The position numbers and the translations under genes were made by a program. 64,000 nucleotides of DNA from the IMG/VR virus record IMGVR_UViG_3300009037_000004, positions 1 to 64,000 of that record. The stretch is one strand, 5' to 3'. A model generated the notes under the pieces. The model was given only the letters and a program-made list of their open reading frames with translations. It had not been told where the DNA came from and ran no database searches. The stretch is from a virus. Lineage: Duplodnaviria > Caudoviricetes. Numbering within the stretch: the first letter of the stretch is position 1; the number at the start of each line of letters is the position of its first letter. Below are positions 8,322 to 48,169 of this stretch, piece by piece.

Positions 8322-8352
8322 CCCTCCAGACTGAAAATCCAGGGGGTTTCCT

Positions 8353-8362
8353 GGCATAAGAC
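8353..8362 (+). promoter_or_regulatory. GGCATAAG motif, putative phage-RNAP promoter
   Basis: Intergenic variant of the GGTATAAG motif found at 23269, 31082 and 48160. Confidence 0.5.
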
Positions 8363-8417
8363 CTTTGAAGACGAGAATGCCAACTTGTCCTCGTAAACCC
8401 TTGCAAGGAGATCGAAA

Positions 8418-8630
8418 ATGGCAGACCCGAAGGTCAAGGCCGAAGCCCTGGCCGGTGAGCTCACCAACACCGGCGAGCCCTCCGCTCCCCTCCTCACCCC
8501 CGGCCGGACCGGCTTCATCGCCGGGCTCGGCACCGCCGGGCTCGGCTACCTGGTCTACAGAGGAATCAGGTGGCTGGCGACGCCCCGCGTTGTCGCCGAG
8601 GCGTTCTCCCGGGCGATCGGCATCCGCTAG
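8418..8630 (+). CDS. Small membrane protein
   Basis: AAGGAG RBS, one Gly-rich TM-like helix, followed by a terminator. Confidence 0.65.
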   Translation: MADPKVKAEALAGELTNTGEPSAPLLTPGRTGFIAGLGTAGLGYLVYRGIRWLATPRVVAEAFSRAIGIR

Positions 8631-8642
8631 TCCCTCCCTCCC

Positions 8643-8669
8643 GAAGCGCCCCGCCAGGCGCTTCTCTTT
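8643..8669 (+). terminator. Intrinsic terminator
   Basis: GAAGCGCC/GGCGCTTC stem followed by TCTTT, between convergent genes. Confidence 0.6.
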
Positions 8670-11559
8670 ACCCCTGATACACGGGCACCCCAGACTCTCT
8701 CATCGGACGGATGATGTCGGGGCGTGGCTGTTGGATCATTGACGCCAGAAGACAGTACAGAATCGAGTGGAAGGCGTCGTCCGTCTTCCCATGAGCGTGC
8801 TTGAACTCCTCCATCCTCAGCCGGTTGTTGTACTCGCTGAAGATGTTGAGGATGTCCTGACCGTAGGGATCAAAGAACTCCTCCCAGTTCGGCAGGTCCA
8901 CCAGCTTCTTCTTGAACGCCGTGAAGAGGTCGCTCATCACCTCTGATCGATGGCACATGTAGCGAAGGAGGTTCTGCTCCCAGTAGATCTTCTTCCTCTG
9001 CCGCGGGTTGTACTGGTACTTGATGACCTTGTTGGGTCCGAACCGCTGGATGAGGATCTTGTTGTTGTGGAAGCCCCCACCGTAGTCCACGCCCACGAGC
9101 TGAACGTGAAGCTGAGTGATCATCTGGGAGATGAGGTCGAGCTGTCTGTCCGGCTCAAGATCTGGCCCGGTGAAACGGTGCACCCAGAAGATGGTGAAGT
9201 TCCCGCCACCAAGATAGCCGCCGAAGCTGATCACGGTGTAGGTGTTCTCGCCCGTGTTGCCCTGATAGGCGATCGATCCATTCCGTTCCGTCACGATGTA
9301 GCCGGAAGGGACCTTGCAACAGTAGACCTTGCCATTGTAAGGAACACGCTCTACTCGATCTTTGAGAGCATTGAACTGGAAGTCCCGACCGCTGGACCAG
9401 AGAGCCCTCCATCGGGTCTTCCGGTTTCCAATAGCTTCCTTGTGGAGGCGAACCACGCAGCGTAGTCCCAGTCGGATGCAGAGTTCCTGGAAGTCCTCGC
9501 AAAGACCCCTTGAAGTGGAATAATAAGCGCCGTTATTGCAGTCCTCTCTCGGATCAATGTACCCATCACCCAATGTCATGGCATCAAAGAGAATCTGAAG
9601 TTGTCGTTTGGAGAGTCCCAGCACCCAACGTGGCAGGCGTTTAGTATCGCCCGTCCTTCCCACATTGAAATAGAACCAGTGCCAGAATTGCTTCCCTTTG
9701 ATCGTCCAATTCAGATCACCCGTCTCTTCGTTTGGGAACTCGGTGAAGGGGATTCCTAATCTTTCCATGCATTCCTTAATCCGAAGCGACTTGATTGGGG
9801 CAGCATCCTCGCGCTGAGACATCTTCAGGGAATAGGGAAACATGACAGTCGGGTCGGCTTTGCTGGGACGGAGGCAGACCCCACCTTCGGACACCACGTA
9901 TCCAAGGAACTCCAGCCAATCATCCATCCTGAAGGTGCGATGATCACACCCCACATATCCGGGGCTCTTCGGTAAAGCTGGCAACTGGAATAGTTCTTCC
10001 TCCCGGCCATGCCAGTCCACGTGACCAACGAACTTGACTACACTTCTTTCGGCAGTTTCTTCCGCCGTCTCCGTTGTCCATCGCGTGGCGTTTGGGCCAA
10101 GTACACGCATACGGTGGACATGATTCAGCATCATGTCCAAGCCCCGTGCTTTGAAATGCAGGAGTGGTTGATCCCAGTCCCGAACGGTTCTTTCTAGGGG
10201 CCGAACTAGCATCATCTCCCGGGTCTCAGGATCCCATTGGGCCACCAGATCATCGTCGGTGAGGTCACGGAAGTAGACGAAGCCACGCTGGGTGAGGATG
10301 CGGGTTTCCTCATCATGGCAACCCCAGTCAATCCCAGCGTACACGCGACGGCCTTGGGCGAGCTCCTTGAACTGCTCGATGTCACCCATCCGGATGTGAG
10401 ACTTGCAGCAAGACTGAAGTTGAGCCCTGGTGATCGGGCGGACACCAGAGTCATAGGACATCCCCAGCTTCTCGTTCATGAACTGGGCACGAGGATAATG
10501 CTCCTGCGCCTCCAGAACCTCCTGCCAATCAACCCAGGGGACCATGAGTTGAGGGATTCGATAACCCTCGAAGGCCACCTTGTTCTCATTCGAGGGCGTT
10601 CGGGGGTTCATGCTAGCCCACTTGGCCTGTGGATGGGCAGCACTGATCAGCTCTCCGCACTTGTCACAGACCAATCCTTGCTTGCCGATGTTCTTCTCCC
10701 CCAGCACATTCCAGTGCCACGAGCTGGGGTTGTTCGGCGTCCCGTGCCGCTCGCAGGGGACCACCCACTCATTCTGGGTGGAGAACTCCTGCCAGTAGTG
10801 TTCGATCGTGTTGTCCTCCGACTTCGGCGTGCCGGAGTAGAGGAACAACTTGTAGCTGGAGTGGAAGGCGCACTGCTCGATGATCGGGATGTTGTCCACC
10901 AGGATGTCCTGGAGCTCATCGATGCAGACCAGGTCGGCTGGGATGCCTCGGACTCGGTCGGCGGTGAGGTAAGCGTACCGCAGACGGATTTGGGAGAAGT
11001 TGATGAACTTCTTAAAGAACACGGCCTGGCTGATCTTCGTGGTGGTGTACGCCTTGAGGAGTGGAGAAGACTCCACCACGTCCTTGATGCGGTCCACCGA
11101 GAAGACCTTAGCCTGCTCCGCGGAAGGGGCGACGTAGAGAGAACGGAAGTTGTTGGTCAGCGCGGAGTAACAGAGCAGCCTGTTCCCCAACGTCGTGCTC
11201 TTCTCCACCTGCCGTCCGCACTTCAGAAGCACCTTGTCCGAGGCGGTATCGTAGATCCTACGGAGATACTCTCTGCCTTCGAAGGAGAACTGACTGACTC
11301 GGCCAGCTTCTGGGACCTGGATAGCTGTCTCAGCAAACTGGGAAGGGGAGACGTCGTAGATCAACAGCTCAGGGTTGAGGGCCAGCAGGTCTTCAGGAGT
11401 TGGATCTGGCGGCTCCTCATCGAACCCGAAGTCGGTGGGCTCCCCGTCCTCATTGTAGTCGAACCAGGGCTCCTTCACCCCACGATCGATGGACCAAACA
11501 AGGGGGATGGTCCGAGCTGACTGAAGGATCTCCGCCTCTGACAGGTTGATGACACTCAT
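8668..11559 (-). CDS. terL: Terminase large subunit (lambda gpA-like) with intein
   Basis: KCGRQVEKST P-loop, DRVRGIPAD, CIDELQD Walker B, SGTPK, nuclease motif GIDWG, and C-terminal DDAFHS. Confidence 0.9.
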   Translation of the reverse strand: MSVINLSEAEILQSARTIPLVWSIDRGVKEPWFDYNEDGEPTDFGFDEEPPDPTPEDLLALNPELLIYDVSPSQFAETAIQVPEAGRVSQFSFEGREYLRRIYDTASDKVLLKCGRQVEKSTTLGNRLLCYSALTNNFRSLYVAPSAEQAKVFSVDRIKDVVESSPLLKAYTTTKISQAVFFKKFINFSQIRLRYAYLTADRVRGIPADLVCIDELQDILVDNIPIIEQCAFHSSYKLFLYSGTPKSEDNTIEHYWQEFSTQNEWVVPCERHGTPNNPSSWHWNVLGEKNIGKQGLVCDKCGELISAAHPQAKWASMNPRTPSNENKVAFEGYRIPQLMVPWVDWQEVLEAQEHYPRAQFMNEKLGMSYDSGVRPITRAQLQSCCKSHIRMGDIEQFKELAQGRRVYAGIDWGCHDEETRILTQRGFVYFRDLTDDDLVAQWDPETREMMLVRPLERTVRDWDQPLLHFKARGLDMMLNHVHRMRVLGPNATRWTTETAEETAERSVVKFVGHVDWHGREEELFQLPALPKSPGYVGCDHRTFRMDDWLEFLGYVVSEGGVCLRPSKADPTVMFPYSLKMSQREDAAPIKSLRIKECMERLGIPFTEFPNEETGDLNWTIKGKQFWHWFYFNVGRTGDTKRLPRWVLGLSKRQLQILFDAMTLGDGYIDPREDCNNGAYYSTSRGLCEDFQELCIRLGLRCVVRLHKEAIGNRKTRWRALWSSGRDFQFNALKDRVERVPYNGKVYCCKVPSGYIVTERNGSIAYQGNTGENTYTVISFGGYLGGGNFTIFWVHRFTGPDLEPDRQLDLISQMITQLHVQLVGVDYGGGFHNNKILIQRFGPNKVIKYQYNPRQRKKIYWEQNLLRYMCHRSEVMSDLFTAFKKKLVDLPNWEEFFDPYGQDILNIFSEYNNRLRMEEFKHAHGKTDDAFHSILYCLLASMIQQPRPDIIRPMRESGVPVYQG
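9256..10320 (-). mobile_element. Intein (355 aa) with LAGLIDADG homing endonuclease
   Basis: Begins CHDEETRILTQRGF and ends VYCCKVPSG...AYQGN, followed by Thr+1. LAGLIDADG-like blocks FLGYVVSEGG and LFDAMTLGDG. More AT-rich than its flanks. Confidence 0.9.
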
Positions 11560-11789
11560 GAAATCGCCTCGAGTCTGAAGACGACGGGGTCCACGGGTAT
11601 AAGAACCTTGACCGCCGACACCAAGCCTTGAGTCGGATGGTCAACTGCCGGCAACAGCATCACCGTGCCCGGTCTCTCAACCCCAAAACTCAAGTGTGGG
11701 ACCTCGGGCCGTAATGTAGATGCCGGCAACACCCGAGGGATCCACACTTGAGCGAGGGAAGTCGTGATGCCGGCGAAAGCCGGCCTCAC
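11556..11789 (-). CDS. Hypothetical protein
   Basis: Fills the gap exactly: GTG directly follows the upstream TAA, and its stop overlaps the terL ATG. Confidence 0.45.
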   Translation of the reverse strand: MRPAFAGITTSLAQVWIPRVLPASTLRPEVPHLSFGVERPGTVMLLPAVDHPTQGLVSAVKVLIPVDPVVFRLEAIS

Positions 11790-12317
11790 TTAGCTTCCAA
11801 GCAGTCTCGAGACCTCGAAGAAGGGGGCCTCGAACTGCTGCTTGGACCAACGCACGGGCGTGTTGGGCTCAGACATCACGACCGACCAGCTATCGACCTC
11901 CCGATAGAAGTCGAGCTTGAACGGCTGGAAGCGGAAGTGCTCCTTGAAGACCCCCTCCACCGTCTCCTTGAACCCCAGCCACCAGGGATGGCGCTCGAGC
12001 TCCTGGTTGGCGTGCTCCGCAATCTTCTGCTGGGCAGCCGGGAGATTTTCCTTGGAGCACGTCTTCTTGACGTCATCCATCGCAGCCTGGGCGACGTCGT
12101 AGATCTCCTTCCGGTCCTTCTTGTAGAAGTGGTAGATCAGGAGCCCGTCCTTGATGACCCACGCGCCCTTGAGATGCCCCGCATCCACCCACGTCAGGTC
12201 TGGCACGCCATCCGACACGGCGTTGGCCAAGTTCCCCTCGAGCTTCGGCAGCCCACGGAGTTTCCACTCCTCGTCATCCATCCAGAAAGGTTTGGTCGGT
12301 TCTTGTGTCTCAGCCAT
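11790..12317 (-). CDS. Hypothetical protein
   Basis: Start moved to MAETQEP (GAGGA RBS). Confidence 0.6.
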   Translation of the reverse strand: MAETQEPTKPFWMDDEEWKLRGLPKLEGNLANAVSDGVPDLTWVDAGHLKGAWVIKDGLLIYHFYKKDRKEIYDVAQAAMDDVKKTCSKENLPAAQQKIAEHANQELERHPWWLGFKETVEGVFKEHFRFQPFKLDFYREVDSWSVVMSEPNTPVRWSKQQFEAPFFEVSRLLGS

Positions 12318-16510: not shown

Positions 16511-16965
16511 CAGTAGTATCCGTATCCCTGCATCTGAGGCTGCGCCGGCGCTGTTTGCTGCGGCTGATGGTGGAGCAATTTCGACCCAGCATACAAGCCG
16601 GCTGCTCCAAGACCTGCCACGCCAGCCATCTGACCGTAGCGTGACTTCGCCAGAGCTCCAAGACCCCCCAGAACTCCGCCTTGCCTCGCGCCCATCATGT
16701 GCACTTGATTCGGGCCCCACATGAGAGCCCGCTCACCCGCCCCCTGCGTCCCTGACCGGTAGATCTGCCCGACGTGTCCGAGAATCCCCTGCGGCTTCCC
16801 CTCCACCAGTCTAGCCGCACCGCGAGACATCGCACTGGGTCCTCCTCGTAGGACCTGACCCCAACCCTTCATACCGCCCCCAAGGAAGCTCATGAGGCCT
16901 GCCTCCTTAGAGATCTGTTCGAGTTCATCCAAAAAGGCATTCTCTATGATCGCGTGCTTGTCCAT
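16510..16965 (-). CDS. Putative packaged Gly-rich membrane-type protein with AFLDELEQISKEAG leader
   Basis: Translationally coupled to the RNAP stop; leader, amphipathic Gly-rich body and TM-like end. Confidence 0.65.
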   Translation of the reverse strand: MDKHAIIENAFLDELEQISKEAGLMSFLGGGMKGWGQVLRGGPSAMSRGAARLVEGKPQGILGHVGQIYRSGTQGAGERALMWGPNQVHMMGARQGGVLGGLGALAKSRYGQMAGVAGLGAAGLYAGSKLLHHQPQQTAPAQPQMQGYGYY

Positions 16966-19900
16966 CAGTATTCCCAGGGCTTCTGACCCCGGCCGAAGTC
17001 GGCGCCATGCACGACCGGGGGAATGGGATGCTTGCCGTGCAGCTTCGACGTCCAGCCTTCCTGAGCCGCCTCGATCACTGTCTTGCTCAGATTCTGGTGG
17101 TTCAGCCTGGCGATCCAGTCTTCTTGCATGTCCAACGGCAGGACGTTTACACCCTTCAACACCGGCTGATGTACGATCGGCTTCTTCCCCTTGGGTAGCT
17201 GCCGATTGATGTTGGAGACCTGCGAAGTCGGAGCGAAGTCCCCGCGCAGGTAGCCGGTGTGATCGCCGACATCCTCAATCCGCGTGAGGTTCGTCAACGC
17301 CTTCACCACCACCTCGGTGTTCCTCCGGCGGATGCCGTGGGGCCCGTAGATTCCGTGAAGAGCATCTGAGAGGTAGCCCTGCACGGGCTCTACCCCGGTA
17401 AGCGGCAGCATCTCGTGAGGATTCACTGGGCCGCCAGAGAGGGGCATGCCCTTCTTCACTTCCATACCTGTCTGAAGAGACTTGCCCCCGAACTGGGGAA
17501 CGCCGCGGTTCTGGGGAACGTAGTGGCGCTTCCCGCCGACGTAGACGTTGTGTCCTCCAGCCGGATCTCTCTCGATCTTCTCGACCTTGCCGGATGCTGT
17601 GCTGAGAGTAGCCGAACCGGGGAGAGTCTTGGGGAAGAGGAGTAGGTGCTTCACCCGCTCGAACTCATCCACCAAGCCTTCCTTCGAGGATGCTGTGCCT
17701 CCCGTGTGGAACGCTTTCATCGCAAGCTGAGTGGCTCGTTCTCCCAGAGCTTGACCAGCCATCACGCCAACGTTGGTTCCTGGTTCCGGTAGGCGTCCTT
17801 CCTCATTCAACCCGAAGCACTTCTGACAGACACCCGGTCCATGATTACAGCGGAGCGGTGATCGAACTGGGACGAGTCCGATCTTGTTGTTCCGGAGGGT
17901 GCTGCGAACCTCTGGGGTGATGAGCGTGCCTGCCTTGAAGACCTTCTTCCCAGCCTTGATGTCTGAGGCCAGATGCCGATCCAGGATGTCCTTCTCATCG
18001 ACCGAGAGAGCGATCCCCCTGGTAGTCCCGCAGTCGTTGTCGATGACGACGTTGTTCATCACAGAGTTCATGACCTGCTTCGAAATGTAACCTGGCTCCT
18101 GGACCTGCTGAACCTTCTGGATGACTCCCTTTCGGGCACCCGACATCGAAGTCCAGTAGTCTGAGATGTCCAGGCCCTCAGCATACGACTTCCTGACCGG
18201 GGTGGGAATGATCTCACCTTTGGCGTTGGCGATGAGCATGGGAGATGCCTTGATCTGACGGACAGTCTCCGGCGACGCCTTCACACCAGCCTGCTTCATG
18301 ACCAGAATGTTGCTGCTGTCCTCGGGTAATAGATCCATTCTCCGCTGGAGTTCCTGGGTGGCTCGGTCGTAGATCTGTACGGTCTTCGCCTGCCGCTCCT
18401 TATCTGTCTTGGCGGAGATCTGTGCGACCGCAGCGTCCGCCTTGGCCATGACCTGATCCCGCATCTTTCTCTCTGGTCTGATGTCCTCCATCCCAAGTGT
18501 GAAGCCCTTCGCGGTGGACCAGTGGTTGCCCAAGTTCTTCAGCTTGTTCACCACGGTTCCGTAGTCGTTTCGATGATCTTGAGCCACCTGGGTGAGGAGA
18601 CGATCTTGACCCTTCTTGTCCAGCAGATCTTTGCTCCGAAGGAAGTCTCCTCTCATGGCTTCGGGAAGGGCCCCCGCAATCAGGAAGCGGCCGGCGTTCG
18701 CCGTGATAGTGCCGACCTTCACCTGATGGTTTGAATCAACCTCCCCTGTTCTCAGGGCACTCTCCAACTCCACCACAGTCTTGAAAGTCTTGCTGATCTT
18801 CTGCCCCGGCTTGGTGAGTCCGTAGAGGCCGAGCTGAGATTCCAACGTAGGCTTGTACATCAAGCTGCCGGTCGAGGGATTGAAGAGATTCCTAGACGGG
18901 TACATGCCCTTCGCTTCCTCAACCGCATCCGTCATCACCGGCACGAAGGCGGACATGGCATCGCCATCGAAGTCCGCGTTGTAGCCGGAAGTCACGAGAG
19001 GATGAATCTGGATCGCCTTCCCGGACACGATCTTAGGCTTGAATGCCTGAATGCCGTACTTGTGCAGGACGGGATCTCTCTTCAGCAACACTGGCCTGGA
19101 TTCCACCACCCGTTCCAGAGCTTTCTGCACCAGTGGGCCCCCTTCCTTCACCTGCTTCTGTGCAGCCAGCGGGGAGATGCCGGTGAGACCCCGCAATTCT
19201 CGAATCACGAATGGCTTGTAGAGCTCCAGCGCGGCCGCGCGAGGGATCCCCAGCTCATCCAATCCTAGTGAGGGTTCCGGTACGATCGTGGACCGCATGG
19301 AGAGGTCTTGCTTCCGCTGAGTGAGTTTCTTCTGGAAGAAACCTTCCTTCGGACTGCCGATCTTCTCCCCCGTCCCCTTACCGCCCTCCTTCTCCGGGCG
19401 CTTGCCCTGGAGGATGTCCAGCACACCACGGAAGTCCCTGTTGGCGTAGCCCCCAATGCCCGTGAGGGACTTCAGATGGTCGTAAACCTCGGCTCTGAGC
19501 TCGTGCTTCTCGCTCGGCGGCATCAATGGGGAGAGCTGCTCGAGCTTGTTAGCGGAGATCCCGATGAACTTGTACATCTGGTTGAGGTCATCGAAGTTGA
19601 GATCTCCATCCGGCCGCTGTGAAACAGGCCGCATGATCGGTGGGATCACCGGCACGTTCCGCATCAGGTAGGCGTCCTTGGGATGCAAGCCAGCCTCGGT
19701 CAGCGCGGTCAGGTAACGAACCTTCTTGTTCGCGCTGTCCAGCCGGTTGCCCTTCAAGTTCGGGTTCGCCAGCTTCTTCTTGGCGTCCTCGAGTTCCGCC
19801 TTGGGGTCAATCTTCTTCAGGAGATGCTCGAAGGCTACCCCTCCCGTGAGATGATCGTCTGTGTTGTTGCTCAGCTTCCCCGTCTTGGGATCAATAGCTG

Positions 19901-22900
19901 CCCGACCGGCGATGATGTCGTCGTACTGTTTCCCGTTCAGCCCAGTGAGGGACTGCACTGCTCTCTCGAACAGAGGATTGGGGTACAGTTCGGGCAGGCG
20001 GATGTGAGACCACTTCGTCCCGCCGTTTCCACCCGTGATCTTCGGATCGAACAGGCCGTCCTTCTCCTCCTTCAGGTCTTTCGCGCGAACCCAGCGACCA
20101 GGATCTTTGATCTGGCCATTGCTCATCTCCTCTACCTGCTTGTCGGTGAAGGGGATGAGCTGAAGGTTGTTGCCATTCTTCTTGACGTTCACACCCAGCG
20201 TATTCAGGTACGCCATGAACTTGTTGTAGGCGAACGTCGGGCGTGGGGCTGGGAGGGGCTCGCCGGCCTGGAGGGCGGACCAGAAGGCATCACCCTGGGC
20301 AGCATCACTTTTGACCGTCTGCATCTCCCGCAGGTTCGCTTTAGCCCCGTGAGCCAGCATTGAGTAGAGGCCAAGCTGGCCCAGAGCTTGCGCGCCATGC
20401 GGACCGCCCCCACGGGGGACCAGGTTCGCGTCGTAGGCGTATCCTGGTCCACCGGCACGAGCAATCATTTTCTTCTCGACCTGGTGCTTGAGCTTGATGA
20501 TGTGCTGGGGGCCGACTGTCACATCCCCGTAGCTCTTCCCAGTCGTGGGATCAACAACCTCTTCCTTGTCACTCAGCCCATGGGCCTTGAGATCTGCTGT
20601 GACCTTTTCATGTAGGTCGGCATTGGGGGAGAAGTTCTTGATGACGTAAGGCTTGCCCGTCTTTTCTGCGATCTTACCTGCAGCCGTCTCCAAGATCTGT
20701 CCCAGGTTCGTTCGACCAACTACGCCAGTGGGGTTCAGCAAGATCTCGAGTGGCTTCCCGTCCTTCGTGTGAGGCATCTCGTGATCTGGGATGACTTTCG
20801 TAACAATGCCCTTGTTCCCATGCCTCCCGGCCAGCTTGTCCCCCAGCTCCATAGGCTCCAGAGTCCGAACGTGAACCACCGCCTGCCGACCACGCTTGAT
20901 GACTTCGGTCACCACCCCAGGCCGATCTGCCTCCCATTTTACACTGTCATCTTTGAACGGCCTGATTAGGGAACGGTGCATTCGGGCAAGGTCCTTGTCC
21001 TCAACCTGCTCTGTCTTCTTTCGCAGAGCGGCGATGAGCGTGTCACCGGGCATCACTTGAACACCTGGCTTGATCAGACCATCGGCGTCTAGCTTGGCGG
21101 CCTGCTCTCGAGTCAGGGCATTGGGGACGTACGCCTGGAACTTCTCCTTGCTCAGGGTGAGGTTCGGATCGATGGCGATGCTCTTCCGGTGAAGATGCTC
21201 GCTGGCAAGACGCTGAGCCGCGGTCTCGCTGATGACGACTCCATCATCGAAGTTGTAGCCCTTGTAGGGCATGTAGCCCACCCGGAGATTGGTCCCCAAA
21301 GCTAGGGTCCCGTTCCTGGTGAAGTTGGTGTCGGCGATCGGCTGACCCCTCTTCACCTTATCTCCGACCTTCACGATGGGCTCGGAGTGCAGGAAGGACT
21401 TGTCAGCATTCAGCGGGAAGTGATCGTAGATTTGATGCTCGATCCTCTTACCTTGAGCATCCTTGACGACGATGTGGTCCTTTCCTACCCTCACGACCTC
21501 GCCGGAGATTCTGGAGGCGTGACCAGCGAAGTTGCCCACGATCTCATCAAACGTATTCTTGGCTGCCCCACTCTGAACCAGTGGGGCCTGCCGGTCGGCT
21601 AGGGGGATGGCCTGCTCCATGTGCCGGCCGGCCATCGTGCTCCGATTCGGGTGGTCGGCAGCCATGAAAGGGATGAGGTTCGAGGCAATGGAAAACATCT
21701 GGAGAGGATCACGCATCACGTACTGCGCGTCTTTCAAGTTCCCCTCCACTATCTCGTTCCCCGGCGCGCTGATCTTCACCTTCCCAGTAGCTGTCGGCTT
21801 GCCATTCTTCCACTGAACCTGGTCGGGGAGAACGAAACTGGACGCCATCGCTTTCTCAGGATTGACGTCCTCCATTTTACCCGTCTTGAGGTTGCGCATC
21901 TTGACTACGACGTCGTGGCCTCGCTTCTTCACCCCCATCGGAAGGCGTAGCGTCACACCCGTGGCTTGGCCCTCGGGTGTATGGATGGGATCAAGGAAGC
22001 CAAGGTGCGATGGGTCAATCAACTTGGCCTCTTCCGAGATTCCGTGTCCACTCTTGATGCCACCCTCCCCCATGATGGTCGTCTTCATCTGGGCGGAGAG
22101 CATCTCCAGAGGGTTGGTCTGGTCTGGGATGTTCGCCAGCGTCGTGTAGTACATCGTCCGGACAGGCTTCTGGAAGACGTCAGGTCCGATAATCTCTCGG
22201 ACCTTCTTCTTGCGATCCAGACTGTTCTGGATTCGCTGCATGATCCTCCGTGACTGATCTTGAATCCGCTCGGACATGAAGTCCTCGACCGAGTGCAGAT
22301 TCTTGAACATGAGCGCGTCACGAGAGTCCGGCTGGGCCTTACCCTGGGAGACGTGCAGGAGCTTGGTCGCTGCATCCAGAAGCACCGGGCCGGTGACCTT
22401 GGTGTACTCCTTGCCCAACGTGAGGCGCGTGGTCTCCGGGAGAAGGCGCGTCCCATCCAGGGTCTCGCGAAGATGCTGACGGGCCTGCTCGAGGTTGTCC
22501 GGCTTCTTCCCCGTGGAGGCTTTGAAGAACTTCAGCAGGGCCTGCTCACCGCTCTTCTGATTGGAGCCTGCGATCTCCTTCCCCCAGCGTGCTTCGATCT
22601 CTTCCGGCGGAGTGCCGAGTTCATGCAGAAGCGGACGGAGTGGGATGTTGGACGTGCCATAGCCCATCGTGAACTGGCGAGACTGAGGATTGAAGTCTAG
22701 GCTGAAGCCTCTTCCCTTGGCCAGGTTGAACTGGGACTCGAGCTCTCCGTTGTCCTTCACCCGCGCGTAGACACCAGACTTCAACCTCCATTGGTTGTCG
22801 ATCTGGTACTCCTGCCCATCCACGATGTGGGAGAAACGACGAGTGGTCTTGGGGAGACTCAGGAGGTTGATCTTCTTCTGGTCGATGACCTTGCCCGATT

Positions 22901-23129
22901 CGTTATCCTTCAACGCAACTGTGGCCTCCACTGGAACCGACCATGACCGCCCCATGGTCTTCGCTTGCTTTTGGGAACGGATGTCATCGATGTGGAGGTT
23001 GTCGTTGACCTGAACATCCTTCAGCTCAAGAGTGTTCTTTTTCCCAATGACAGGGAACAGCCCGCCAATGGTCTGGGTCACACGATCTTTGAGGATCTGG
23101 AATCCCTCTTCCGGGGACAGACGTGCCAT
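16965..23129 (-). CDS. rpoBC: Single-chain fused beta-beta' DNA-directed RNA polymerase
   Basis: Beta motifs GYNFDD, GDKLAGRHGNKG, LLNPTGVVGRTNLGQ and TVKSD continue in one frame into beta' motifs PVIPPIMRP, RDPVLH, NADFDGD (18960-18980), the bridge helix GARKG and the trigger loop GERATQLAMKAFHTGG. Confidence 0.95.
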   Translation of the reverse strand: MARLSPEEGFQILKDRVTQTIGGLFPVIGKKNTLELKDVQVNDNLHIDDIRSQKQAKTMGRSWSVPVEATVALKDNESGKVIDQKKINLLSLPKTTRRFSHIVDGQEYQIDNQWRLKSGVYARVKDNGELESQFNLAKGRGFSLDFNPQSRQFTMGYGTSNIPLRPLLHELGTPPEEIEARWGKEIAGSNQKSGEQALLKFFKASTGKKPDNLEQARQHLRETLDGTRLLPETTRLTLGKEYTKVTGPVLLDAATKLLHVSQGKAQPDSRDALMFKNLHSVEDFMSERIQDQSRRIMQRIQNSLDRKKKVREIIGPDVFQKPVRTMYYTTLANIPDQTNPLEMLSAQMKTTIMGEGGIKSGHGISEEAKLIDPSHLGFLDPIHTPEGQATGVTLRLPMGVKKRGHDVVVKMRNLKTGKMEDVNPEKAMASSFVLPDQVQWKNGKPTATGKVKISAPGNEIVEGNLKDAQYVMRDPLQMFSIASNLIPFMAADHPNRSTMAGRHMEQAIPLADRQAPLVQSGAAKNTFDEIVGNFAGHASRISGEVVRVGKDHIVVKDAQGKRIEHQIYDHFPLNADKSFLHSEPIVKVGDKVKRGQPIADTNFTRNGTLALGTNLRVGYMPYKGYNFDDGVVISETAAQRLASEHLHRKSIAIDPNLTLSKEKFQAYVPNALTREQAAKLDADGLIKPGVQVMPGDTLIAALRKKTEQVEDKDLARMHRSLIRPFKDDSVKWEADRPGVVTEVIKRGRQAVVHVRTLEPMELGDKLAGRHGNKGIVTKVIPDHEMPHTKDGKPLEILLNPTGVVGRTNLGQILETAAGKIAEKTGKPYVIKNFSPNADLHEKVTADLKAHGLSDKEEVVDPTTGKSYGDVTVGPQHIIKLKHQVEKKMIARAGGPGYAYDANLVPRGGGPHGAQALGQLGLYSMLAHGAKANLREMQTVKSDAAQGDAFWSALQAGEPLPAPRPTFAYNKFMAYLNTLGVNVKKNGNNLQLIPFTDKQVEEMSNGQIKDPGRWVRAKDLKEEKDGLFDPKITGGNGGTKWSHIRLPELYPNPLFERAVQSLTGLNGKQYDDIIAGRAAIDPKTGKLSNNTDDHLTGGVAFEHLLKKIDPKAELEDAKKKLANPNLKGNRLDSANKKVRYLTALTEAGLHPKDAYLMRNVPVIPPIMRPVSQRPDGDLNFDDLNQMYKFIGISANKLEQLSPLMPPSEKHELRAEVYDHLKSLTGIGGYANRDFRGVLDILQGKRPEKEGGKGTGEKIGSPKEGFFQKKLTQRKQDLSMRSTIVPEPSLGLDELGIPRAAALELYKPFVIRELRGLTGISPLAAQKQVKEGGPLVQKALERVVESRPVLLKRDPVLHKYGIQAFKPKIVSGKAIQIHPLVTSGYNADFDGDAMSAFVPVMTDAVEEAKGMYPSRNLFNPSTGSLMYKPTLESQLGLYGLTKPGQKISKTFKTVVELESALRTGEVDSNHQVKVGTITANAGRFLIAGALPEAMRGDFLRSKDLLDKKGQDRLLTQVAQDHRNDYGTVVNKLKNLGNHWSTAKGFTLGMEDIRPERKMRDQVMAKADAAVAQISAKTDKERQAKTVQIYDRATQELQRRMDLLPEDSSNILVMKQAGVKASPETVRQIKASPMLIANAKGEIIPTPVRKSYAEGLDISDYWTSMSGARKGVIQKVQQVQEPGYISKQVMNSVMNNVVIDNDCGTTRGIALSVDEKDILDRHLASDIKAGKKVFKAGTLITPEVRSTLRNNKIGLVPVRSPLRCNHGPGVCQKCFGLNEEGRLPEPGTNVGVMAGQALGERATQLAMKAFHTGGTASSKEGLVDEFERVKHLLLFPKTLPGSATLSTASGKVEKIERDPAGGHNVYVGGKRHYVPQNRGVPQFGGKSLQTGMEVKKGMPLSGGPVNPHEMLPLTGVEPVQGYLSDALHGIYGPHGIRRRNTEVVVKALTNLTRIEDVGDHTGYLRGDFAPTSQVSNINRQLPKGKKPIVHQPVLKGVNVLPLDMQEDWIARLNHQNLSKTVIEAAQEGWTSKLHGKHPIPPVVHGADFGRGQKPWEY

Positions 23130-23192
23130 CTTCAGCAATCTCCCGAGTCTTCGAGAGTCCCAAGACTCTCTTCGGGTGTAGCTAGTATGACC

Positions 23193-23222
23193 AAGCTACC
23201 AGATCGCAGCGGGGCAAGGCAA
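23193..23222 (-). promoter_or_regulatory. Sigma70-like promoter upstream of the RNAP gene, TTGCCT-N18-TAGCTT
   Basis: Weaker match, but has the same 18-bp spacer as the promoters at 7723 and 31008. Confidence 0.4.
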
Positions 23223-23248: not shown

Positions 23249-23278
23249 GAAACGATCATCTCGGATTGGGTATAAGGA
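23249..23278 (+). promoter_or_regulatory. Putative phage-RNAP promoter, GAAACGATCATC-N8-GGTATAAG
   Basis: Shares the upstream AAACG(G)ATCATC element and the core with the copy at 48141-48169. Confidence 0.6.
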
Positions 23279-23325
23279 AGGTAAGAGGCAGAGCTGCTTA
23301 ACCTCGTAGCCAAAGGAGAAAGAGA

Positions 23326-31007: not shown

Positions 31008-31037
31008 ATACTACGTCCCTACTTTAGCACGGGTCAA
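31008..31037 (-). promoter_or_regulatory. Sigma70-like promoter of the portal operon, TTGACC-N18-TAGTAT
   Basis: Read directly upstream of the ATG at 30982. Confidence 0.6.
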
Positions 31038-31081
31038 GGAGTCTTGAGGAGCACCACTCACGCAATTCTTTTTGAAGCGCA

Positions 31082-31091
31082 GGTATAAGAA
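31082..31091 (+). promoter_or_regulatory. GGTATAAGAA motif, putative phage-RNAP promoter
   Basis: Intergenic, about 40 nt upstream of the gene at 31131. Confidence 0.6.
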
Positions 31092-31130
31092 CCTCGTCTA
31101 GGACTCCCAAACTCGCAAACAGGAGAAATC

Positions 31131-42510: not shown

Positions 42511-42513
42511 ACC

Positions 42514-43015: not shown

Positions 43016-44336
43016 GAAGACCGAGAACCGACCCACCCGGTTGCCGAAGATGGACATGGACGACCTCGTGGAGGGCATCACCGCGGAGCTGGGCGGTTAT
43101 GGAGTGGTACTCCAACGCGGTTCGGAGCTGGAAGGGCGCTTCGACCTCCGGCGGCCCTGCGGAATCCCCTCCCTGGACATCGCCACTGGCGGTGGGCTCG
43201 CAGCGGGGGGGCTATCTCAGATCGATGGGCCAGACGGAGCCGGGAAGAACCTGCTGATCTACAACTACTTCGCCCAGGTGCAAAGACTCTACGGGGACTC
43301 CACCAGGATCTTCATGCTCTGCATGGAGTTCCCGTTCGACAAGATGTACGCCCGGAAGATCGGCTTCCGGGTTCCCTTCTCCAACTACGAGCTCGAGGTG
43401 GAGGCACGACGCCGGAGGGAGGCCGGGGAAGAGCCCCTTACAGTACAGGAGTGCCACGAGCTTCAGGACAAGAAGGGGTGCGGTGAGTTTCTGGTTCTGC
43501 GGGGAGCGGCGGAGGGGAACCTAGATGCTCTCGTCCGCATGATCTGGTCCAACGCCTTCCAGATTGGAGCGGTGGACTCCTGGGACTCGATGCTCACCGC
43601 GGCTGAAGATGAGGCCGACTTGGCTGATGACCCCCGCATCGCCAGCTCCTCCTCCGTCCAGACGAAGTGGATGAAGAAGGTGCAGGGGGCAATGGCTCCC
43701 CGGAAGCGGTGCCCGGAGTGCTACGAGCTGGAGATCGAGTTCAAGAAGCACAGTGAGACCAGCTACGGCTACACCTGCAAGAGTTGTGGATGGAAGGGGA
43801 AGCGGCCGTTCCTGGAAGAGAACGAGACCACGATCATCGGTATCCGTCAGGTTCGGGCCAACCTGAACAAGGCCGGGATGCGCTCGAGGGAATGGAAAGT
43901 GGGTGGGGCCTGGGCGCTCAAGCACGGCAAGCTGGTAGACATCCAGCTCCGTCCAGGGGAGATCCTCTACACCAAGGACGGCAAGACCAAGATCGGTAAG
44001 GAAATCAACTGGGAGATCACCAAGGGGAAGGCAGGGACGCACGAGGGGATCACGGGGGCCTTCAAGTACTTCTTCGAGCCACCCGAGATCGACATCGACT
44101 CGGACTTCATCAACTACTGCACCTCGAAGAGCATCATTCGGCGAGGTGGGTCTGTCTACTACGTCGATCATGGTGGTGCCCTTCCCAACGAGGACGACCC
44201 GCTGAAGTTCAGTGGGAAGGACGCGCTGATGGATGCATTCGATGATCCCAAGCTGGGGCTGAAGAACCTTCTGTGGAAGATGATGCTGAAGGACGCCGGT
44301 CTCCAGCATGTCCGCCACAAGGACGTCGAGGGATGA
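42999..44336 (+). CDS. recA: RecA-like recombinase with Zn-ribbon insert
   Basis: GIPSLDIATGGG, GPDGAGKN, VDSWD, IRQVR and GGAWALKH; CPEC...CKSC insert. Confidence 0.85.
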   Translation: MAKKAEKTENRPTRLPKMDMDDLVEGITAELGGYGVVLQRGSELEGRFDLRRPCGIPSLDIATGGGLAAGGLSQIDGPDGAGKNLLIYNYFAQVQRLYGDSTRIFMLCMEFPFDKMYARKIGFRVPFSNYELEVEARRRREAGEEPLTVQECHELQDKKGCGEFLVLRGAAEGNLDALVRMIWSNAFQIGAVDSWDSMLTAAEDEADLADDPRIASSSSVQTKWMKKVQGAMAPRKRCPECYELEIEFKKHSETSYGYTCKSCGWKGKRPFLEENETTIIGIRQVRANLNKAGMRSREWKVGGAWALKHGKLVDIQLRPGEILYTKDGKTKIGKEINWEITKGKAGTHEGITGAFKYFFEPPEIDIDSDFINYCTSKSIIRRGGSVYYVDHGGALPNEDDPLKFSGKDALMDAFDDPKLGLKNLLWKMMLKDAGLQHVRHKDVEG

Positions 44337-44860
44337 AGGTTGAGCTGGTAATCAGATACCTGGGATTCGGAAGGCAGTGCTCGGGATGCGGCAGAGTCAG
44401 AGAGACGACCAGATACCAGATCCGCGACCAGGCGGAGCACATCCTACAGGAGTTCCTGCTCTGCGATGGCTGTCAGGACAACGGGTACGTGGTCGAGTTC
44501 GAGCCCGCCCGCTCCTCCTCTCCTGTCACCAAGCAGGAGAGGAGGCGGCGGATCAAGATCTCCCAGAAGCTGGAGAAGGGGCTAGCCCTGGACATTGGCG
44601 GCCACACCCAGCCTGGCTCTGGAAACCAGGACGCGAAAGACGACGTACGAAAGATCGACGAGTGGCGAGTTGAGCACAAATACACGGAAAGTACGAAAGG
44701 CTTCCGGTTGCTCGTGGATCAGCTCGCGGCTGTCGTTCGGCATGCGAACATTGCGGGCGAGTGGCCGGCACTCGTCATCACCTTCAGGCGACTTGGCCGA
44801 AAGTTCGCCGTCATCCCTTATGAACTCTTCATCGAGATCGCGAGGAAAACACATGGCTGA
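44333..44860 (+). CDS. Zn finger plus Hjc-like PD-(D/E)xK resolvase
   Basis: CSGC...CDGC, then E...GG...PGSG...KDD...VEHKYT. Confidence 0.65.
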   Translation: MKVELVIRYLGFGRQCSGCGRVRETTRYQIRDQAEHILQEFLLCDGCQDNGYVVEFEPARSSSPVTKQERRRRIKISQKLEKGLALDIGGHTQPGSGNQDAKDDVRKIDEWRVEHKYTESTKGFRLLVDQLAAVVRHANIAGEWPALVITFRRLGRKFAVIPYELFIEIARKTHG

Positions 44861-45734
44861 GACTCTTCTGACCATCGAGGACGCCAAGCGGCACCTCGGC
44901 CCGGGCGGTAAGATCAAGGATCTCGTCCGGCACATCTCCGTGGTTTCACGGATCGATGCATTTCTGGAAGACCTGAATGTGGAACCACCAGCTCCACTGA
45001 AGGTCTCCTTCGATCTCAACTCCATCCGGCATGGAAGCATCTTCCATCCGTCAAGCATCGGAAGCACCTCGGGAAAGTCCCTCGATGGGAAGTACTCCAT
45101 CGGGTGTGCCCGGCTCCTCTACTACGACTACATCGGAGCGGAACAAACTGGGGCCATCGAACCCAGACTCCGAAGGATCTTCGACACCGGCTCTGCAATC
45201 CATGCCCAACTCCAGGCGTACCTGGGGGAGATTGTCAGAAGAAGTGAGGGCGTCGAGGAGTTCACGCCCGAAGCGTTCTTCCACCCGGGCAACAACAAGG
45301 CCGCCGACTCCTACGACATCGCGGGGAGTACGGACGGCATCTACGTCATGCATGAGCCTGCCAACATCCGCTTCGGTGTGGAGATCAAGTCGATCAACGA
45401 TGCGGGATATCAGAAGACCACGAACCCACACGCTGAGCACCTCATGCAGGGCACCGTCTACCAGCACTGCCTCGACCTCCCGGCGATGCTGTTCGTCTAC
45501 TACAACAAGAACGACTCCAGCATGGCCGAGTTCGTCCAGGTCTACGATGAACGGCGCTGGGATGCCATCGCCAAGAAGCTCGACCGCGTGCGAGAGATGG
45601 CCCTCAAGGAGGAGGAGCCGGAGCGCGAGGACGGCTGGCACTGCATGACCTGCAAGTACAAGGCGATCTGCAATCCGCCCAAGAAGAGCAAGAACGAGGG
45701 CGCCAAGATGTTCAACACGAGCAGGAGGCGCTGA
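44853..45734 (+). CDS. Cas4-like PD-(D/E)xK exonuclease
   Basis: HPSS..C.R, GSAIH, GSTDG, EIKS, Q..VY and C-terminal CxxCxxxxxC. Confidence 0.8.
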   Translation: MAETLLTIEDAKRHLGPGGKIKDLVRHISVVSRIDAFLEDLNVEPPAPLKVSFDLNSIRHGSIFHPSSIGSTSGKSLDGKYSIGCARLLYYDYIGAEQTGAIEPRLRRIFDTGSAIHAQLQAYLGEIVRRSEGVEEFTPEAFFHPGNNKAADSYDIAGSTDGIYVMHEPANIRFGVEIKSINDAGYQKTTNPHAEHLMQGTVYQHCLDLPAMLFVYYNKNDSSMAEFVQVYDERRWDAIAKKLDRVREMALKEEEPEREDGWHCMTCKYKAICNPPKKSKNEGAKMFNTSRRR

Positions 45735-46372
45735 TGCCGAATCCCTTTGAAGTCACGCTGGACCGGGCCATCGAGATCTACGATGAAGCCGGGGACCAAG
45801 CTGAAGCGGATGTGATCAAGATGGGACTACCACTTGCAGTCCGACCGATAAGACGGGATGGAACGCTGGCGGACTCCCCCCAGCCTCCCATCGACCTCAG
45901 CGAGGCGAGATACGCCGAACTCACTACCCTGATCGGGCAGTTCACCGCCTGGTACTCCTACGCCATCAGCCAACTGAAGATTGCGGAGGGGGAGAGGAAC
46001 AGGGCTCAGAAGAAGCGGGACGTTGCCTGGTCACACATCCGGCAGAAGAAGGACGGAACAGTGTCGGACAAGGACGATGCAGCTAGGCTAGACAAGCGGT
46101 TCTTGGACGTGGACGCCCACTACGAGTACTGCGACAGCAAGGTCCGACACCTCACTGCCATCACGGAAGGCTACAAGCGTGAGATCGAAACCGTCTCCAG
46201 GGCCTTCTCCGCCCTTGACGGGAAGGCCAACGTGGAGGGACGTGGAGCCACCTTCGCCAGGAAGCGGTCGGCAGAGGTAGCTGGGGACGCATTCAAAACG
46301 TCCCGGAGATCTGAGCAACCTCACGAATCGAAACGGTCCGCACTGGACGTGTTCAAGAAGGGACGACGATGA
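45734..46372 (+). CDS. Coiled-coil protein, possible recombination mediator
   Basis: Helical protein in a recombination cluster. The function is inferred from context. Confidence 0.5.
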   Translation: MPNPFEVTLDRAIEIYDEAGDQAEADVIKMGLPLAVRPIRRDGTLADSPQPPIDLSEARYAELTTLIGQFTAWYSYAISQLKIAEGERNRAQKKRDVAWSHIRQKKDGTVSDKDDAARLDKRFLDVDAHYEYCDSKVRHLTAITEGYKREIETVSRAFSALDGKANVEGRGATFARKRSAEVAGDAFKTSRRSEQPHESKRSALDVFKKGRR

Positions 46373-46911
46373 TCTTCAGGGTTTGGATTCCACGGCTGCC
46401 CCCTTCTTCGAACAACATCTACATCCGCCACCCGGCGGGCAAGGGAAGAGTCCTGAGCCCACAGGCCAGGACGTTCAAGCTCAAGGCGATGCAGGCGATC
46501 CAAGACGGAGCGAAGGTGGCCCTCCTGAAGCTGGAGAAGAACGTCCCGTACGAGCTCCACCTGGCGGTGTTCTTCGAACAGGTGGAAAACAAAGCATCGA
46601 CCAAGGGCAATCGCTACAAGCAGATGGACCTGAGCAACCGGATCAAGCTGATCGAAGATACGGTTGCATCAGCCATCGGGCTTGATGACTGCCACAACTT
46701 TCGCACGTCGCAGGAGAAACACTGCGACCCAGAACACCCAGGTCTCTACGTCACGCTCAGTCGGGTCCCGGAGGCCGAGGTGGGAATGACAAAGGAGGCT
46801 TATGATCGAGTACGATTACAACAACCTGAACGAGACCGAGCTAGTCGAGCTGGCGCGACATCACGGCTGTTGGGTAGGTCACCGTGGGTTAGGAAGGGAG
46901 CTTCTCATTAA
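46369..46911 (+). CDS. rusA: RusA-like Holliday junction resolvase
   Basis: PPSSNNIY and DLSNRIKLIED...GLDD. Confidence 0.75.
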   Translation: MIFRVWIPRLPPSSNNIYIRHPAGKGRVLSPQARTFKLKAMQAIQDGAKVALLKLEKNVPYELHLAVFFEQVENKASTKGNRYKQMDLSNRIKLIEDTVASAIGLDDCHNFRTSQEKHCDPEHPGLYVTLSRVPEAEVGMTKEAYDRVRLQQPERDRASRAGATSRLLGRSPWVRKGASH

Positions 46912-47137
46912 GATCATCGAGGGAAAAGTCGATCCCGGTGACTGTCCAGCAGACCCCGTGGATGACGAGAGGAACGCGATGATGTTGATGAAGGAGACCT
47001 GGAAGGATGTCTACCATCAGCTCAAGTGTGCAGACCAGTTCTATGCTTGCTGGGATTGTCCACCCGCTAGAGCCAGGGCTTGCGCGGTGGACGAGTGCGA
47101 GAAAGACCTCCTGGAGAAGGTGAAGGACGGGGGATGA
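46802..47137 (+). CDS. Rho-N/HeH-like plus Cys-rich protein
   Basis: AAGGAGG RBS; NLNETELVELAR..G..RELLI, then C..CWDCP..C. Confidence 0.55.
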   Translation: MIEYDYNNLNETELVELARHHGCWVGHRGLGRELLIKIIEGKVDPGDCPADPVDDERNAMMLMKETWKDVYHQLKCADQFYACWDCPPARARACAVDECEKDLLEKVKDGG

Positions 47138-47364
47138 GGAAAAGCTGCGTGACCTGCAAGCATCTTTCGAGCTGTGAGGAGGTGTCGGCACCCAGGCTAA
47201 ACGAGGGGTATTCCTGCTCTGTTTGGACTCTGGCTGAAGAAGAGGAACGAAAGGCACGAGACTCGATCATTAGGGAGTTTGGACCATCGGCGCTGCGGTT
47301 CGCACTTCCACAATCCCAAGTCAGCGCCAACGCAAGAGCACGGAGACGAAGGAAACATGTCTGA
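47134..47364 (+). CDS. Small Cys-rich protein
   Basis: ATGA coupling; CVTCKHLSSC...C. Confidence 0.55.
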   Translation: MRKSCVTCKHLSSCEEVSAPRLNEGYSCSVWTLAEEEERKARDSIIREFGPSALRFALPQSQVSANARARRRRKHV

Positions 47365-47923
47365 GAAACTCACGAAGGAAGACCTGGATGGTATGAGCCG
47401 AGTCCAACTCCGCCGCGCGGCCATGGAAGTGTTGGGCATGGGCAACAAGGAAGCGACCGAGATGAACAGCGCGGACCTCAAGGCCAAGATCCTGGAGGCC
47501 CAGGAAGGCGGGGGAAAGAAGAAGGGTAAGGCCGCGCCGCCCCCGGAGGAGCCGAAGAAGGGCAGGGGCAAGCCCGCCCCGGAACCCGAGCCGGAAGAAG
47601 AACCCGAGCCGGAGCCCGAAGAGGAGGCTCCGCCCCCGAAGGGCAAGGTCGCTGCGTCGTCCGAAACCAGGACGCTGACTGAGATCTTGAAGGTCGTCCA
47701 TGCGGTCGGGAAGGCCGTGGACGAGCTCGCCCAGACCGTGGCGGAACGCCTGGACACGCAGGACGAGCACCTGGTCGAGATCGAGCGGAAACTCTTCCAC
47801 CAGCTCGGACTCACCGAGAACATCTTCAAGGGTGTGAGCGAGCCGGACGAGTTCGAGCCCAGGATCGAGGCGCTGGAGGACGAGTGGAAGAAGCAGGCGG
47901 AGGGCGAGGAGGGAAACGACTAG
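47357..47923 (+). CDS. Rho-N/HeH-like, PE-linker, coiled-coil protein ending at a slippery site
   Basis: AAGGA RBS; LDGMSRVQLRRAA...SADLKAKIL, PEPEPEEEPEPEPEEE; ends GAG GGA AAC GAC TAG. Confidence 0.7.
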   Translation: MSEKLTKEDLDGMSRVQLRRAAMEVLGMGNKEATEMNSADLKAKILEAQEGGGKKKGKAAPPPEEPKKGRGKPAPEPEPEEEPEPEPEEEAPPPKGKVAASSETRTLTEILKVVHAVGKAVDELAQTVAERLDTQDEHLVEIERKLFHQLGLTENIFKGVSEPDEFEPRIEALEDEWKKQAEGEEGND

Positions 47924-48114
47924 CAGGGGGCTCTACCCTGGGTCCCCGCCCAGCTCGTCCGGATGAGACCGTGAACGTGACCGAAGCCTACCTGGCCGAC
48001 CTGACCTTGGACAGCCTCCGGCTGCTAGCTGTCCAGCTCGTTGTGGACATCGACCCGGCCGCCATCGAGGATCGCGAGGAGCTACTCCAGCTCCTCCGAT
48101 CCAACTCCCTCTAG
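47911..48114 (+). other. Putative -1 programmed frameshift (G GGA AAC plus hairpin) and -1 frame extension
   Basis: In-phase X XXY YYZ heptamer, a stem-loop at 47923-47949, and a -1 frame open to 48114. Confidence 0.65.
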
Positions 48115-48134
48115 CCCCTTCGGGGGCTTTTCTT
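48113..48134 (+). terminator. Intrinsic terminator ending the replication block
   Basis: AGCCCC-TTCG-GGGGCT followed by TTTCTT. Confidence 0.85.
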
Positions 48135-48140
48135 AACCTG

Positions 48141-48169
48141 CAAACGGATCATCCATGCCGGTATAAGAA
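48141..48169 (+). promoter_or_regulatory. Putative phage-RNAP promoter, CAAACGGATCATC-N6-GGTATAAGAA
   Basis: Lies directly after a terminator and matches the copy at 23249-23278. Confidence 0.6.

Follow-up and report, generated by a model that had tools for sequence, protein, structure and literature searches.

Cellular-type RNA polymerases (RNAPs) normally require alpha, omega and sigma, and the enzymes of phages phiKZ and AR9 consist of four to five very divergent subunits, with a barely sigma-like specificity subunit and with AT-rich or TATG promoters. A paper on the RNAP-encoding Caudovirales, tailed phages that are uncultured and have beta and beta' genes of the cellular type, makes no mention of promoters or sigma (Weinheimer and Aylward 2020; PMC7481178). 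In purified virions of the cultured Salmonella phage Arash, the RNAP subunits Gp206 (3516 spectra) and Gp216 (1210) and the sigma factor Gp10 (467) are among the most abundant proteins, and the word 'promoter' appears nowhere in that report (PMC10585845). Here, we focus on the first 64 kb (the 64,000 nucleotides analysed, hereafter the window) of the virus record IMGVR_UViG_3300009037_000004 (137,433 bp, ~59% GC), in which a short word, GGYATAAG (Y, pyrimidine; hereafter the box), recurs ahead of plus-strand genes. The motif, its two-part structure, its placement and its conservation are observed directly, as are a sigma gene and a fused polymerase in the same genome, and we consider, with a probability of roughly 0.6, that the box marks a phage-specific promoter class which is read by the phage sigma on the phage's own single-chain beta-beta' polymerase. 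No paper on the box was found, a search with the 8-mer giving only unrelated primer matches among those listed.

The original prediction named four plus-strand copies, GGCATAAG at 8353 and GGTATAAG at 23269, 31082 and 48160. All four are present, but the list was incomplete, as a further plus-strand match at 11596 had been missed. Five matches in the window compare with an expectation of 0.99 +/- 0.93, and five or more copies were reached in 0/100 shuffles. The putative promoters built around these copies, termed class II below, are as follows.

8333..8367, plus strand: class II promoter 1, with G-n-A-A-A at 8333-8337, the box GGCATAAG at 8353-8360 and a predicted start at ~8367; heads a 70-aa open reading frame (ORF) at 8418-8630
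11576..11610, plus strand: class II promoter 2, with the box at 11596-11603 and a predicted start at ~11610; no ORF bearing a ribosome-binding site (RBS) lies 3' of it
23249..23283, plus strand: class II promoter 3, with the box at 23269-23276; heads the unit 23326-24505 and stands back-to-back with the promoter of the RNAP gene
31062..31096, plus strand: class II promoter 4, with the box at 31082-31089; the sole copy ahead of a 17-kb replication block at 31131-48114
48140..48174, plus strand: class II promoter 5, with the box at 48160-48167; heads a 101-aa ORF at 48281-48586

In the whole genome there are nine forward matches and one reverse match, while the reversed pattern, used as a control, gives none on either strand. 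Gene positions were taken from crude codon-usage calls which, together with the tRNAs, cover ~88% of the genome, and which missed at least two real genes (11790-12473, minus strand; 39327-40472, plus strand). All ten copies fall outside these calls and the tRNAs, in a non-coding share of only ~12%, so the intergenic position claimed earlier for the four copies is borne out, and intergenic enrichment extends genome-wide, with ten copies against none for the control and every one non-coding. Nine of the ten lie on the plus strand, while the genome is mostly minus-strand coded. Words that begin with TATAA are scarce in this genome, and GG precedes six of the seven forward occurrences of TATAAG; GGTATAA followed by T, A or C is absent genome-wide, and so is GGTATAAT.

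An ungapped alignment of the ten genomic copies, with positions numbered from the first G of the box, brings out a second element which was left unfixed by the search. The [G/C]AA that had been noticed 19-20 nt upstream is real and sharper than claimed, with G at -20 in 8/10 copies, A at -18 in 10/10 and A at -17 in 9/10, forming an element G-n-A-A-a at -20 to -16. The word AAACG(G)ATCATC, reported as common to 23269 and 48160, is present at both. Downstream of the box, A occupies +8 in 8/10 copies, and a pyrimidine at +13 and a purine at +14 are each found in 9/10 copies here and in 31/31 copies in phage Arash. The class II consensus can be written as G-n-A-A-a, 15 nt, GG(Y/G)ATAAG, 5 nt and a pyrimidine-purine step, and it is at this step, at +14 of the box, that the sequence predicts transcription probably starts. 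With +14 as the start, the box would occupy -14 to -7, as a composite -10 element made of GG at -14/-13 and YATAAG at -12 to -7, with A at -11, and the upstream element would lie at about -34 to -30. The box and the spacing of the second element, which is fixed in 10/10 copies and lies ~17 bp upstream of the -10, thus give a promoter geometry of the sigma-70 family, to which also belongs an A at -11 in a -10-type element, 6-8 nt before the predicted purine start.

What lies downstream of the copies is equally regular. Seven are followed by a Shine-Dalgarno sequence and an ATG 27-121 nt downstream, and one by a tRNA-Thr gene 21 nt downstream; the first genes that had been named, at 8418, 23326, 31131 and 48281, each have a Shine-Dalgarno sequence and stand 49-121 nt 3' of the box. 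Terminator-like hairpins are placed directly 5' of two copies (48160 and 122732). A position weight matrix made from the ten copies, which scores the 48160 copy highest, finds four more one-mismatch sites with a correct upstream element, and its control gives no site scoring 12 or more.

114299, 98929 and 77795, plus strand, and 118610, minus strand: one-mismatch box variants, from the matrix scan, heading further units

We regard it as nearly certain that the box is a promoter. It might instead be a regulator-binding, RNA-processing or replication/packaging signal, which would suit the two copies, 11596 and 102113, that have no ORF downstream, but the chance of this is very slight in view of the strict orientation ahead of a Shine-Dalgarno-ATG or a tRNA, the second element at a fixed distance, the start-like pyrimidine-purine step and the copies that come just after terminators or stand back-to-back with divergent promoters. 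Moreover, the ORF-less 11596 copy is followed by a stable, positionally conserved RNA.

Two genes of the phage could together supply an enzyme for such a promoter.

16965..23138, minus strand: single-chain beta-beta' RNA polymerase, listed as an ORF of 2057 aa with a likely ATG at 23129
88,928-89,698 of the genome (L039:1480-2250), outside the window, minus strand: divergent sigma-70-family protein of 256 aa, recognised by Pfam, PHROG and profile comparison

Within the single RNAP ORF, Pfam recognises Rpb2_6, Rpb2_3, Rpb1_1, Rpb1_2, Rpb1_3 and Rpb1_5, the beta domains coming first and the beta' domains after them. The clamp helices of bacterial beta' are the docking site of sigma domain 2, and the corresponding region of the phage protein aligns with bacterial beta' with no deletion. 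The earlier reading had seen no sigma gene within the window, and this was correct. The 256-aa protein scores 29.7 bits with Sigma70_r3 (cut-off 25.3) and 21.5 bits with Sigma70_r4 (cut-off 24.1), and matches PHROG 351 ('RNA polymerase sigma factor'). A profile of five homologues aligns with SigA/RpoD structures at E-values of 1e-9 to 1e-8 over regions 2.x to 4.2, so that regions 2, 3 and 4 of the sigma-70 family are all recognisable, region 2 not being called by Pfam alone; none of the NCBIfam subfamily models claims the protein. Region 2.3 is without the aromatic pair and region 2.4 is divergent, departures which fit with a non-canonical -10 element.

The conservation of the box was followed through relatives reached by protein searches, as no close relative in the phage collection was matched by megablast with 24 kb of the window. 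The RNAP query retrieves 30 IMG/VR loci, with identities of 43-75% and GC contents of 35-66%. In these loci, 46 non-redundant boxes lie opposite the RNAP strand and four on the RNAP strand, against 12-13 per strand for the control, and among the 46 copies A(-18) is kept in 33, A(-17) in 33 and a purine at +14 in 41. Most of the 30 relatives have an orthologue of the 23269 copy, on the strand opposite the RNAP gene and 60-90 nt 5' of its start, and the orthologue of 11596 lies ~11.4 kb downstream; relatives that lack the exact word carry GTT-, GAT-, GAG- or GGG-ATAAG at the orthologous places. The upstream G-n-A-A-a element is kept in close relatives and in a 199-kb genome of 95% completeness (G004), whose boxes are clustered at 132-151 kb ahead of small ORFs. 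Of the five large relatives examined, four encode the sigma, at 43-70% identity.

Among cultured phages, Salmonella phage Arash (OQ632216) gave tblastn matches to the sigma (29% identity, E 1e-23) and to the RNAP (~33%), and both were matched also in Vibrio phages D69, D148 and D181, which with Arash are the sole records matching the sigma. Overall, these relatives are ~31-33% identical in the RNAP and 26-29% in the sigma, with sigma E-values of 1e-23 and 4e-18. In Arash, GGNATAAG has 36 reverse matches against seven forward; GGTATAAG occurs 30 times opposite the strand of the RNAP, sigma and structural genes and once on the same strand, and each copy has TGTA at +13 and then a Shine-Dalgarno-ATG, one being followed by a tRNA. 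The base after GGTATAA in Arash is G in 30 cases, T in one (GGTATAAT), A in four and C in four. In Vibrio phage D69, G[GT]TATAAG is likewise divided 24 to 4 by strand. Thus, the proposal that the box is a bipartite phage-specific promoter and not a host sigma-70 site is well supported by position, internal structure and conservation in ~35 related phage sequences, two of them from cultured phages.

From this co-conservation, the sequences argue that the phage sigma quite probably reads the box. It may do so on the host core RNAP, as SPO1 gp28 and T4 gp55 do, leaving the fused polymerase with another role or promoter class. The phage protein is, after all, a recognisable sigma-70-family member aligning to bacterial primary sigmas, many phage sigmas act on the host core, and the physical link between sigma and phage polymerase is a presumed one. 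This arrangement nevertheless seems unlikely, as sigma and fused polymerase co-occur across the lineage, both are abundant in Arash virions, the phage beta' retains its clamp-helix region, and a phage with a complete catalytic core has small need of the host's.

The genome also holds a second set of promoter-like sites. Scanning for TTG[AC]NN, 16-18 nt and TAnnnT gave nine non-coding sites, all nine on the minus strand, which head minus-strand blocks or RNA genes, and three of them stand back-to-back with a box promoter.

23222, 31037, 66485, 98919, 99454, 119467, 121549, 133086 and 136230, minus strand: class I sites from the TTG[AC]NN-N16-18-TAnnnT scan
23193..23222, minus strand: class I (sigma-70-like) promoter of the RNAP gene, with TTGCCT, an 18-nt spacer with TGG, and TAGCTT
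31008..31037, minus strand: class I promoter facing away from class II promoter 4, with TTGACC, 18 nt and TAGTAT; heads the minus-strand block starting at 30982

The site ahead of the RNAP gene is kept in relatives down to 45% RNAP identity, and always adjoins a divergent box promoter. By their sequence, the class I sites would be host sigma-A promoters. The genome appears to use them for one strand, on which lie the genes for the RNAP, the terminase, a portal-like protein and most tRNAs, and to use the box for the opposite one. Ten large minus-strand proteins were compared with PHROGs; nine had no annotation and one gave a weak portal match, so that the label of 'virion genes' for this strand derives from the terminase, the portal-like match and synteny with Arash.

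That the box itself is a host sigma-70/sigma-A extended -10 promoter with an odd last base, used by the unmodified host holoenzyme, has some attraction, since YATAAG matches TATAAT at five of six positions in a sigma-70 geometry, and the T that precedes GG in 18 of 30 Arash copies yields TGnTATAAg. We nonetheless judge it very unlikely. G stands at -7 in every copy, where sigma-70 strongly prefers T, and the host-type T at the last -10 position is therefore lacking; GG at -14/-13 is invariant, and a T before it is not favoured here (3/10). No copy has a TTGACA-like -35 hexamer such as the host primary sigma would use, in agreement with the original prediction, and a sigma-70 consensus scan placed no site around the copies it covered (8353, 11596 and 48160). 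The same word recurs across Salmonella, Vibrio and other phages of very different GC and host, unlike the scatter of host promoters, and true TTGAC/TAnnnT promoters serve other units of the same genome. For these reasons, the box is very probably not a plain host sigma-A promoter.

The existence of two classes raises a further assignment, in which the phage sigma would read TTGAC/TAnnnT and the box would be read by the polymerase alone or with an unrecognised factor. The phage sigma does align best to primary sigmas, the readers of TTGACA/TATAAT, and specificity subunits as divergent as those of phiKZ and AR9 are a precedent for such a factor. This assignment is highly improbable, in that the box, and not class I, co-varies with sigma over the lineage, TTGAC-type sites in Arash are not at the heads of structural operons, regions 2.3 and 2.4 of the sigma have the departures described above, and the box shows the two-part geometry of the sigma family.

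With the phage sigma on the phage polymerase as the preferred reader of the box, a transcription programme can be proposed. The 256-aa sigma (88,928-89,698) would bind the single-chain beta-beta' polymerase (16965-23138), and this holoenzyme would transcribe the plus-strand non-structural units, namely the replication module, the small early-type proteins, the 101-aa ORF and the structured RNA, together with the ligase, HU protein and tRNA units outside the window. In a likely extension, as yet unproven and modelled on phage N4, class I promoters of the host type would drive late synthesis of polymerase and sigma, and the two proteins would then enter the virion and act on class II promoters once the next cell is infected. 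More tentatively, and at somewhat less than even odds, the analogy suggests an N4-like inverted programme in which a packaged minimal holoenzyme of one beta-beta' chain and one sigma, with no alpha or omega, would fire the boxes first, for anti-defence and replication genes, and host sigma-A holoenzyme would read the virion and polymerase genes from TTGAC/TAnnnT promoters; such a scheme would be assembled from parts of bacterial type. A host-type promoter ahead of the RNAP gene fits a T7-like cascade, with the host enzyme acting first, and the RNAP and sigma genes on the virion-gene strand, taken with the Arash virion data, fit the N4-like programme. The units would be early ones if gene content (HU, replication genes and a Csx3-like anti-CRISPR candidate) and Arash virion proteomics (PMC10585845) are a guide.

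Several points weigh against this interpretation. The gene calls that underlie the placement of the boxes are crude and home-made. No promoter of either class was found directly 5' of the sigma gene, which stands inside a long minus-strand block, and the same was seen in four relatives. Arash and D69 are only distantly related to the phage studied here, with the low RNAP and sigma identities given above. In 18 of the 30 Arash copies a T before GG makes the word TGGTATAAG, which differs from an extended -10 sigma-70 element only at -7, and the conserved upstream element is absent at the Arash copies, so that contacts by sigma domain 4 may not be general. Mass spectrometry of virions may, according to the Arash authors, also catch abundant non-structural proteins (PMC10585845). 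Finally, the sigma and the core enzyme that read the box, and the time at which they do so, are deduced from sequence, and the sigma could act on the host core instead of the phage polymerase.

In addition, a short N-terminal tag was considered in connection with packaging. The sigma gene lies deep in the long minus-strand block, directly after a gene for a 77-aa protein with the tag F-W-D-E-I-T-K-I-A, and an F-x-D-E-L-x-K-I tag is carried by four proteins, including one that immediately precedes sigma. The tag pattern has no match on either the RNAP or the sigma, and thus gives no evidence for the packaging of either. A separate observation concerns the RNAP start in two relatives (L026 and L027, ~9800-10000 of each), where the first ~10 RNAP codons (M-A-R-L-S/D-P-E-E-G...) recur, together with the RBS, in a short ORF that lies upstream of the gene; this duplicated start may be an insertion or duplication scar.

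The units headed by the box differ in content. The original prediction had pictured the promoters as islands between late operons, and this matches the layout, each clear plus-strand unit of the window being headed by exactly one copy. The replication block at 31131-48114 encodes a superfamily 2 (SF2) helicase, a DnaB-like helicase, a primase, a family A DNA polymerase, a UvsX-like recombinase and a Cas4-like exonuclease, has no further box copy inside it, and is closed by a terminator.

48113..48128, plus strand: intrinsic-terminator-like hairpin with a T-run, closing the replication block just 5' of class II promoter 5

The unit at 23326-24505 begins with a very acidic peptide of 44 aa, followed by ORFs of 41, 158 and 143 aa. 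A similar acidic ORF occupies the same place in the one relative that was translated (L009, with a duplicate in L024) as the 44-aa peptide (23326-23460, plus strand) does here; the peptide could mimic DNA or bind the polymerase or sigma. The small ORFs that follow promoters 1, 3 and 5 had no match in Pfam or PHROGs, and for the 101-aa ORF at 48281-48586, which we presume to be Csx3-like, this name is a candidate label only. Outside the window, boxes head an ATP-dependent DNA ligase, an HU-type protein, a 70-aa ORF and a tRNA.

Other observations touch single promoters. In the spacer of promoter 1 (8339-8354), the minus strand can form a hairpin followed by a T-run, so that one compact element may combine a plus-strand promoter with a minus-strand terminator. 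The box promoter at 133196 (minus strand) lies between two tRNAs, in a genome for which ARAGORN finds 42 tRNA genes and a transfer-messenger RNA (tag ANDNHFVEEIRAAA) at 119-137 kb, all on the minus strand. The plus-strand copy at 102113 (locus L056:2113) is a full box promoter with no ORF, and its downstream RNA is not stabler than shuffles (z -1.1). In Arash (L059-L067), several plus-strand structural-gene starts (e.g. 109.2, 128.1, 137.6 and 142.7 kb) have C/T-TAAAAT-like or TTAAACTA-like words ahead of them with no -35; by their sequence, these words may be a third, late promoter class of that phage, of which no obvious counterpart was seen in the genome studied here.

Behind the other ORF-less copy, at 11596, the sequence folds into a candidate RNA that is far more stable than expected (z = -5.3; 0/200 shuffles as stable).

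11610..11795, plus strand: candidate structured RNA of ~185 nt, from class II promoter 2

Its 3' end is a GC-rich hairpin with a GNRA-type four-base loop, which abuts the stop of the minus-strand gene 11790-12473. The position of promoter 2 is kept in at least eight relatives and the terminal GC hairpin in 11. Comparison with Rfam yielded nothing credible for the stretches that follow 11596 and 102113. The RNA is antisense to an intergenic part of a minus-strand operon, in the gap that separates the terminase gene from its upstream neighbour. The large terminase itself (8668-11559, minus strand) has 963 aa, a GpA ATPase domain and a weak LAGLIDADG_3 match at residues 663-727, which suggests an intein or an inserted homing-endonuclease domain.

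If confirmed, the pair described here would be the simplest natural example of a bacterial-type holoenzyme with its promoter, made of one fused catalytic chain and one sigma, and would be of use for understanding how a sigma recognises a -10 element whose last base is G, what lets a core assemble when alpha is missing, and how phage and host transcription are kept separate. For annotation, the box would make it simple to pick out non-structural, and probably early, units in a widespread group of large phages that is almost unstudied. The prediction is directly testable, as the same box is found in phages available in culture, namely Arash and those of Vibrio.

Among known sigma factors, sigma-28 (FliA, group 3) offers a useful comparison. 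Its promoter has the form TAAAGTTT-n11-GCCGATAA, with the -10 GCCGATAA and TAAA 15 nt upstream (PMC2859248). Like the box, it combines an A-rich -35, a spacer of ~15 nt and an 8-nt composite -10 in which a 2-nt extension is joined to a core containing ATAA, and sigma-28 resembles the phage sigma in having ~250 aa and regions 2, 3 and 4; unlike the box, its register differs by one base, and in register the -10 differs at five of eight positions. Membership of the sigma-28/FliA group was rejected, the phage sigma scoring 20.9 bits with the FliA/WhiG model (TIGR02479; cut-off 189.6) and similarly with the RpoD and SigB/F/G models. The late promoters of T4 (TATAAATA; gp55/gp33) are also phage-specific -10 elements which share TATAA with the box and whose specificity comes from a phage protein of the sigma family. 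T4, however, uses the host core, a protein with sigma domain 2 only and a sliding clamp, on late genes, whereas here a full-length sigma and a phage core would serve non-structural units.

Phages phiKZ and AR9, like the phage studied here, have beta/beta'-like enzymes without alpha or omega, a virion form for early genes and short promoters of their own, but the RNAP and sigma described here are both recognisable by Pfam and plainly bacterial in type. The box is unlike a T7-like promoter, which is contiguous over ~20 bp and read by a single-subunit enzyme, as the enzyme here is of the beta-beta' two-barrel kind, the motif is in two parts and the spacer is variable. Coliphage N4 is possibly similar in its virion-borne phage polymerase for early genes and in virion genes transcribed from host sigma-70-type promoters; it differs in its single-subunit T7-like polymerases and hairpin promoters, and the likeness is one of programme only, as yet unproven. 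The cultured relatives are among the closest counterparts. Arash and the Vibrio phages share with this phage a bacterial-type RNAP, a homologous sigma and boxes opposite the RNAP strand, and Arash also shares the T-purine step at +13/+14. Arash differs in its larger genome, in ~30 box copies with TGTA downstream and no conserved upstream element, and in an RNAP that is split into two ORFs (gp206 and gp216), where the phage described here has a fused single chain.

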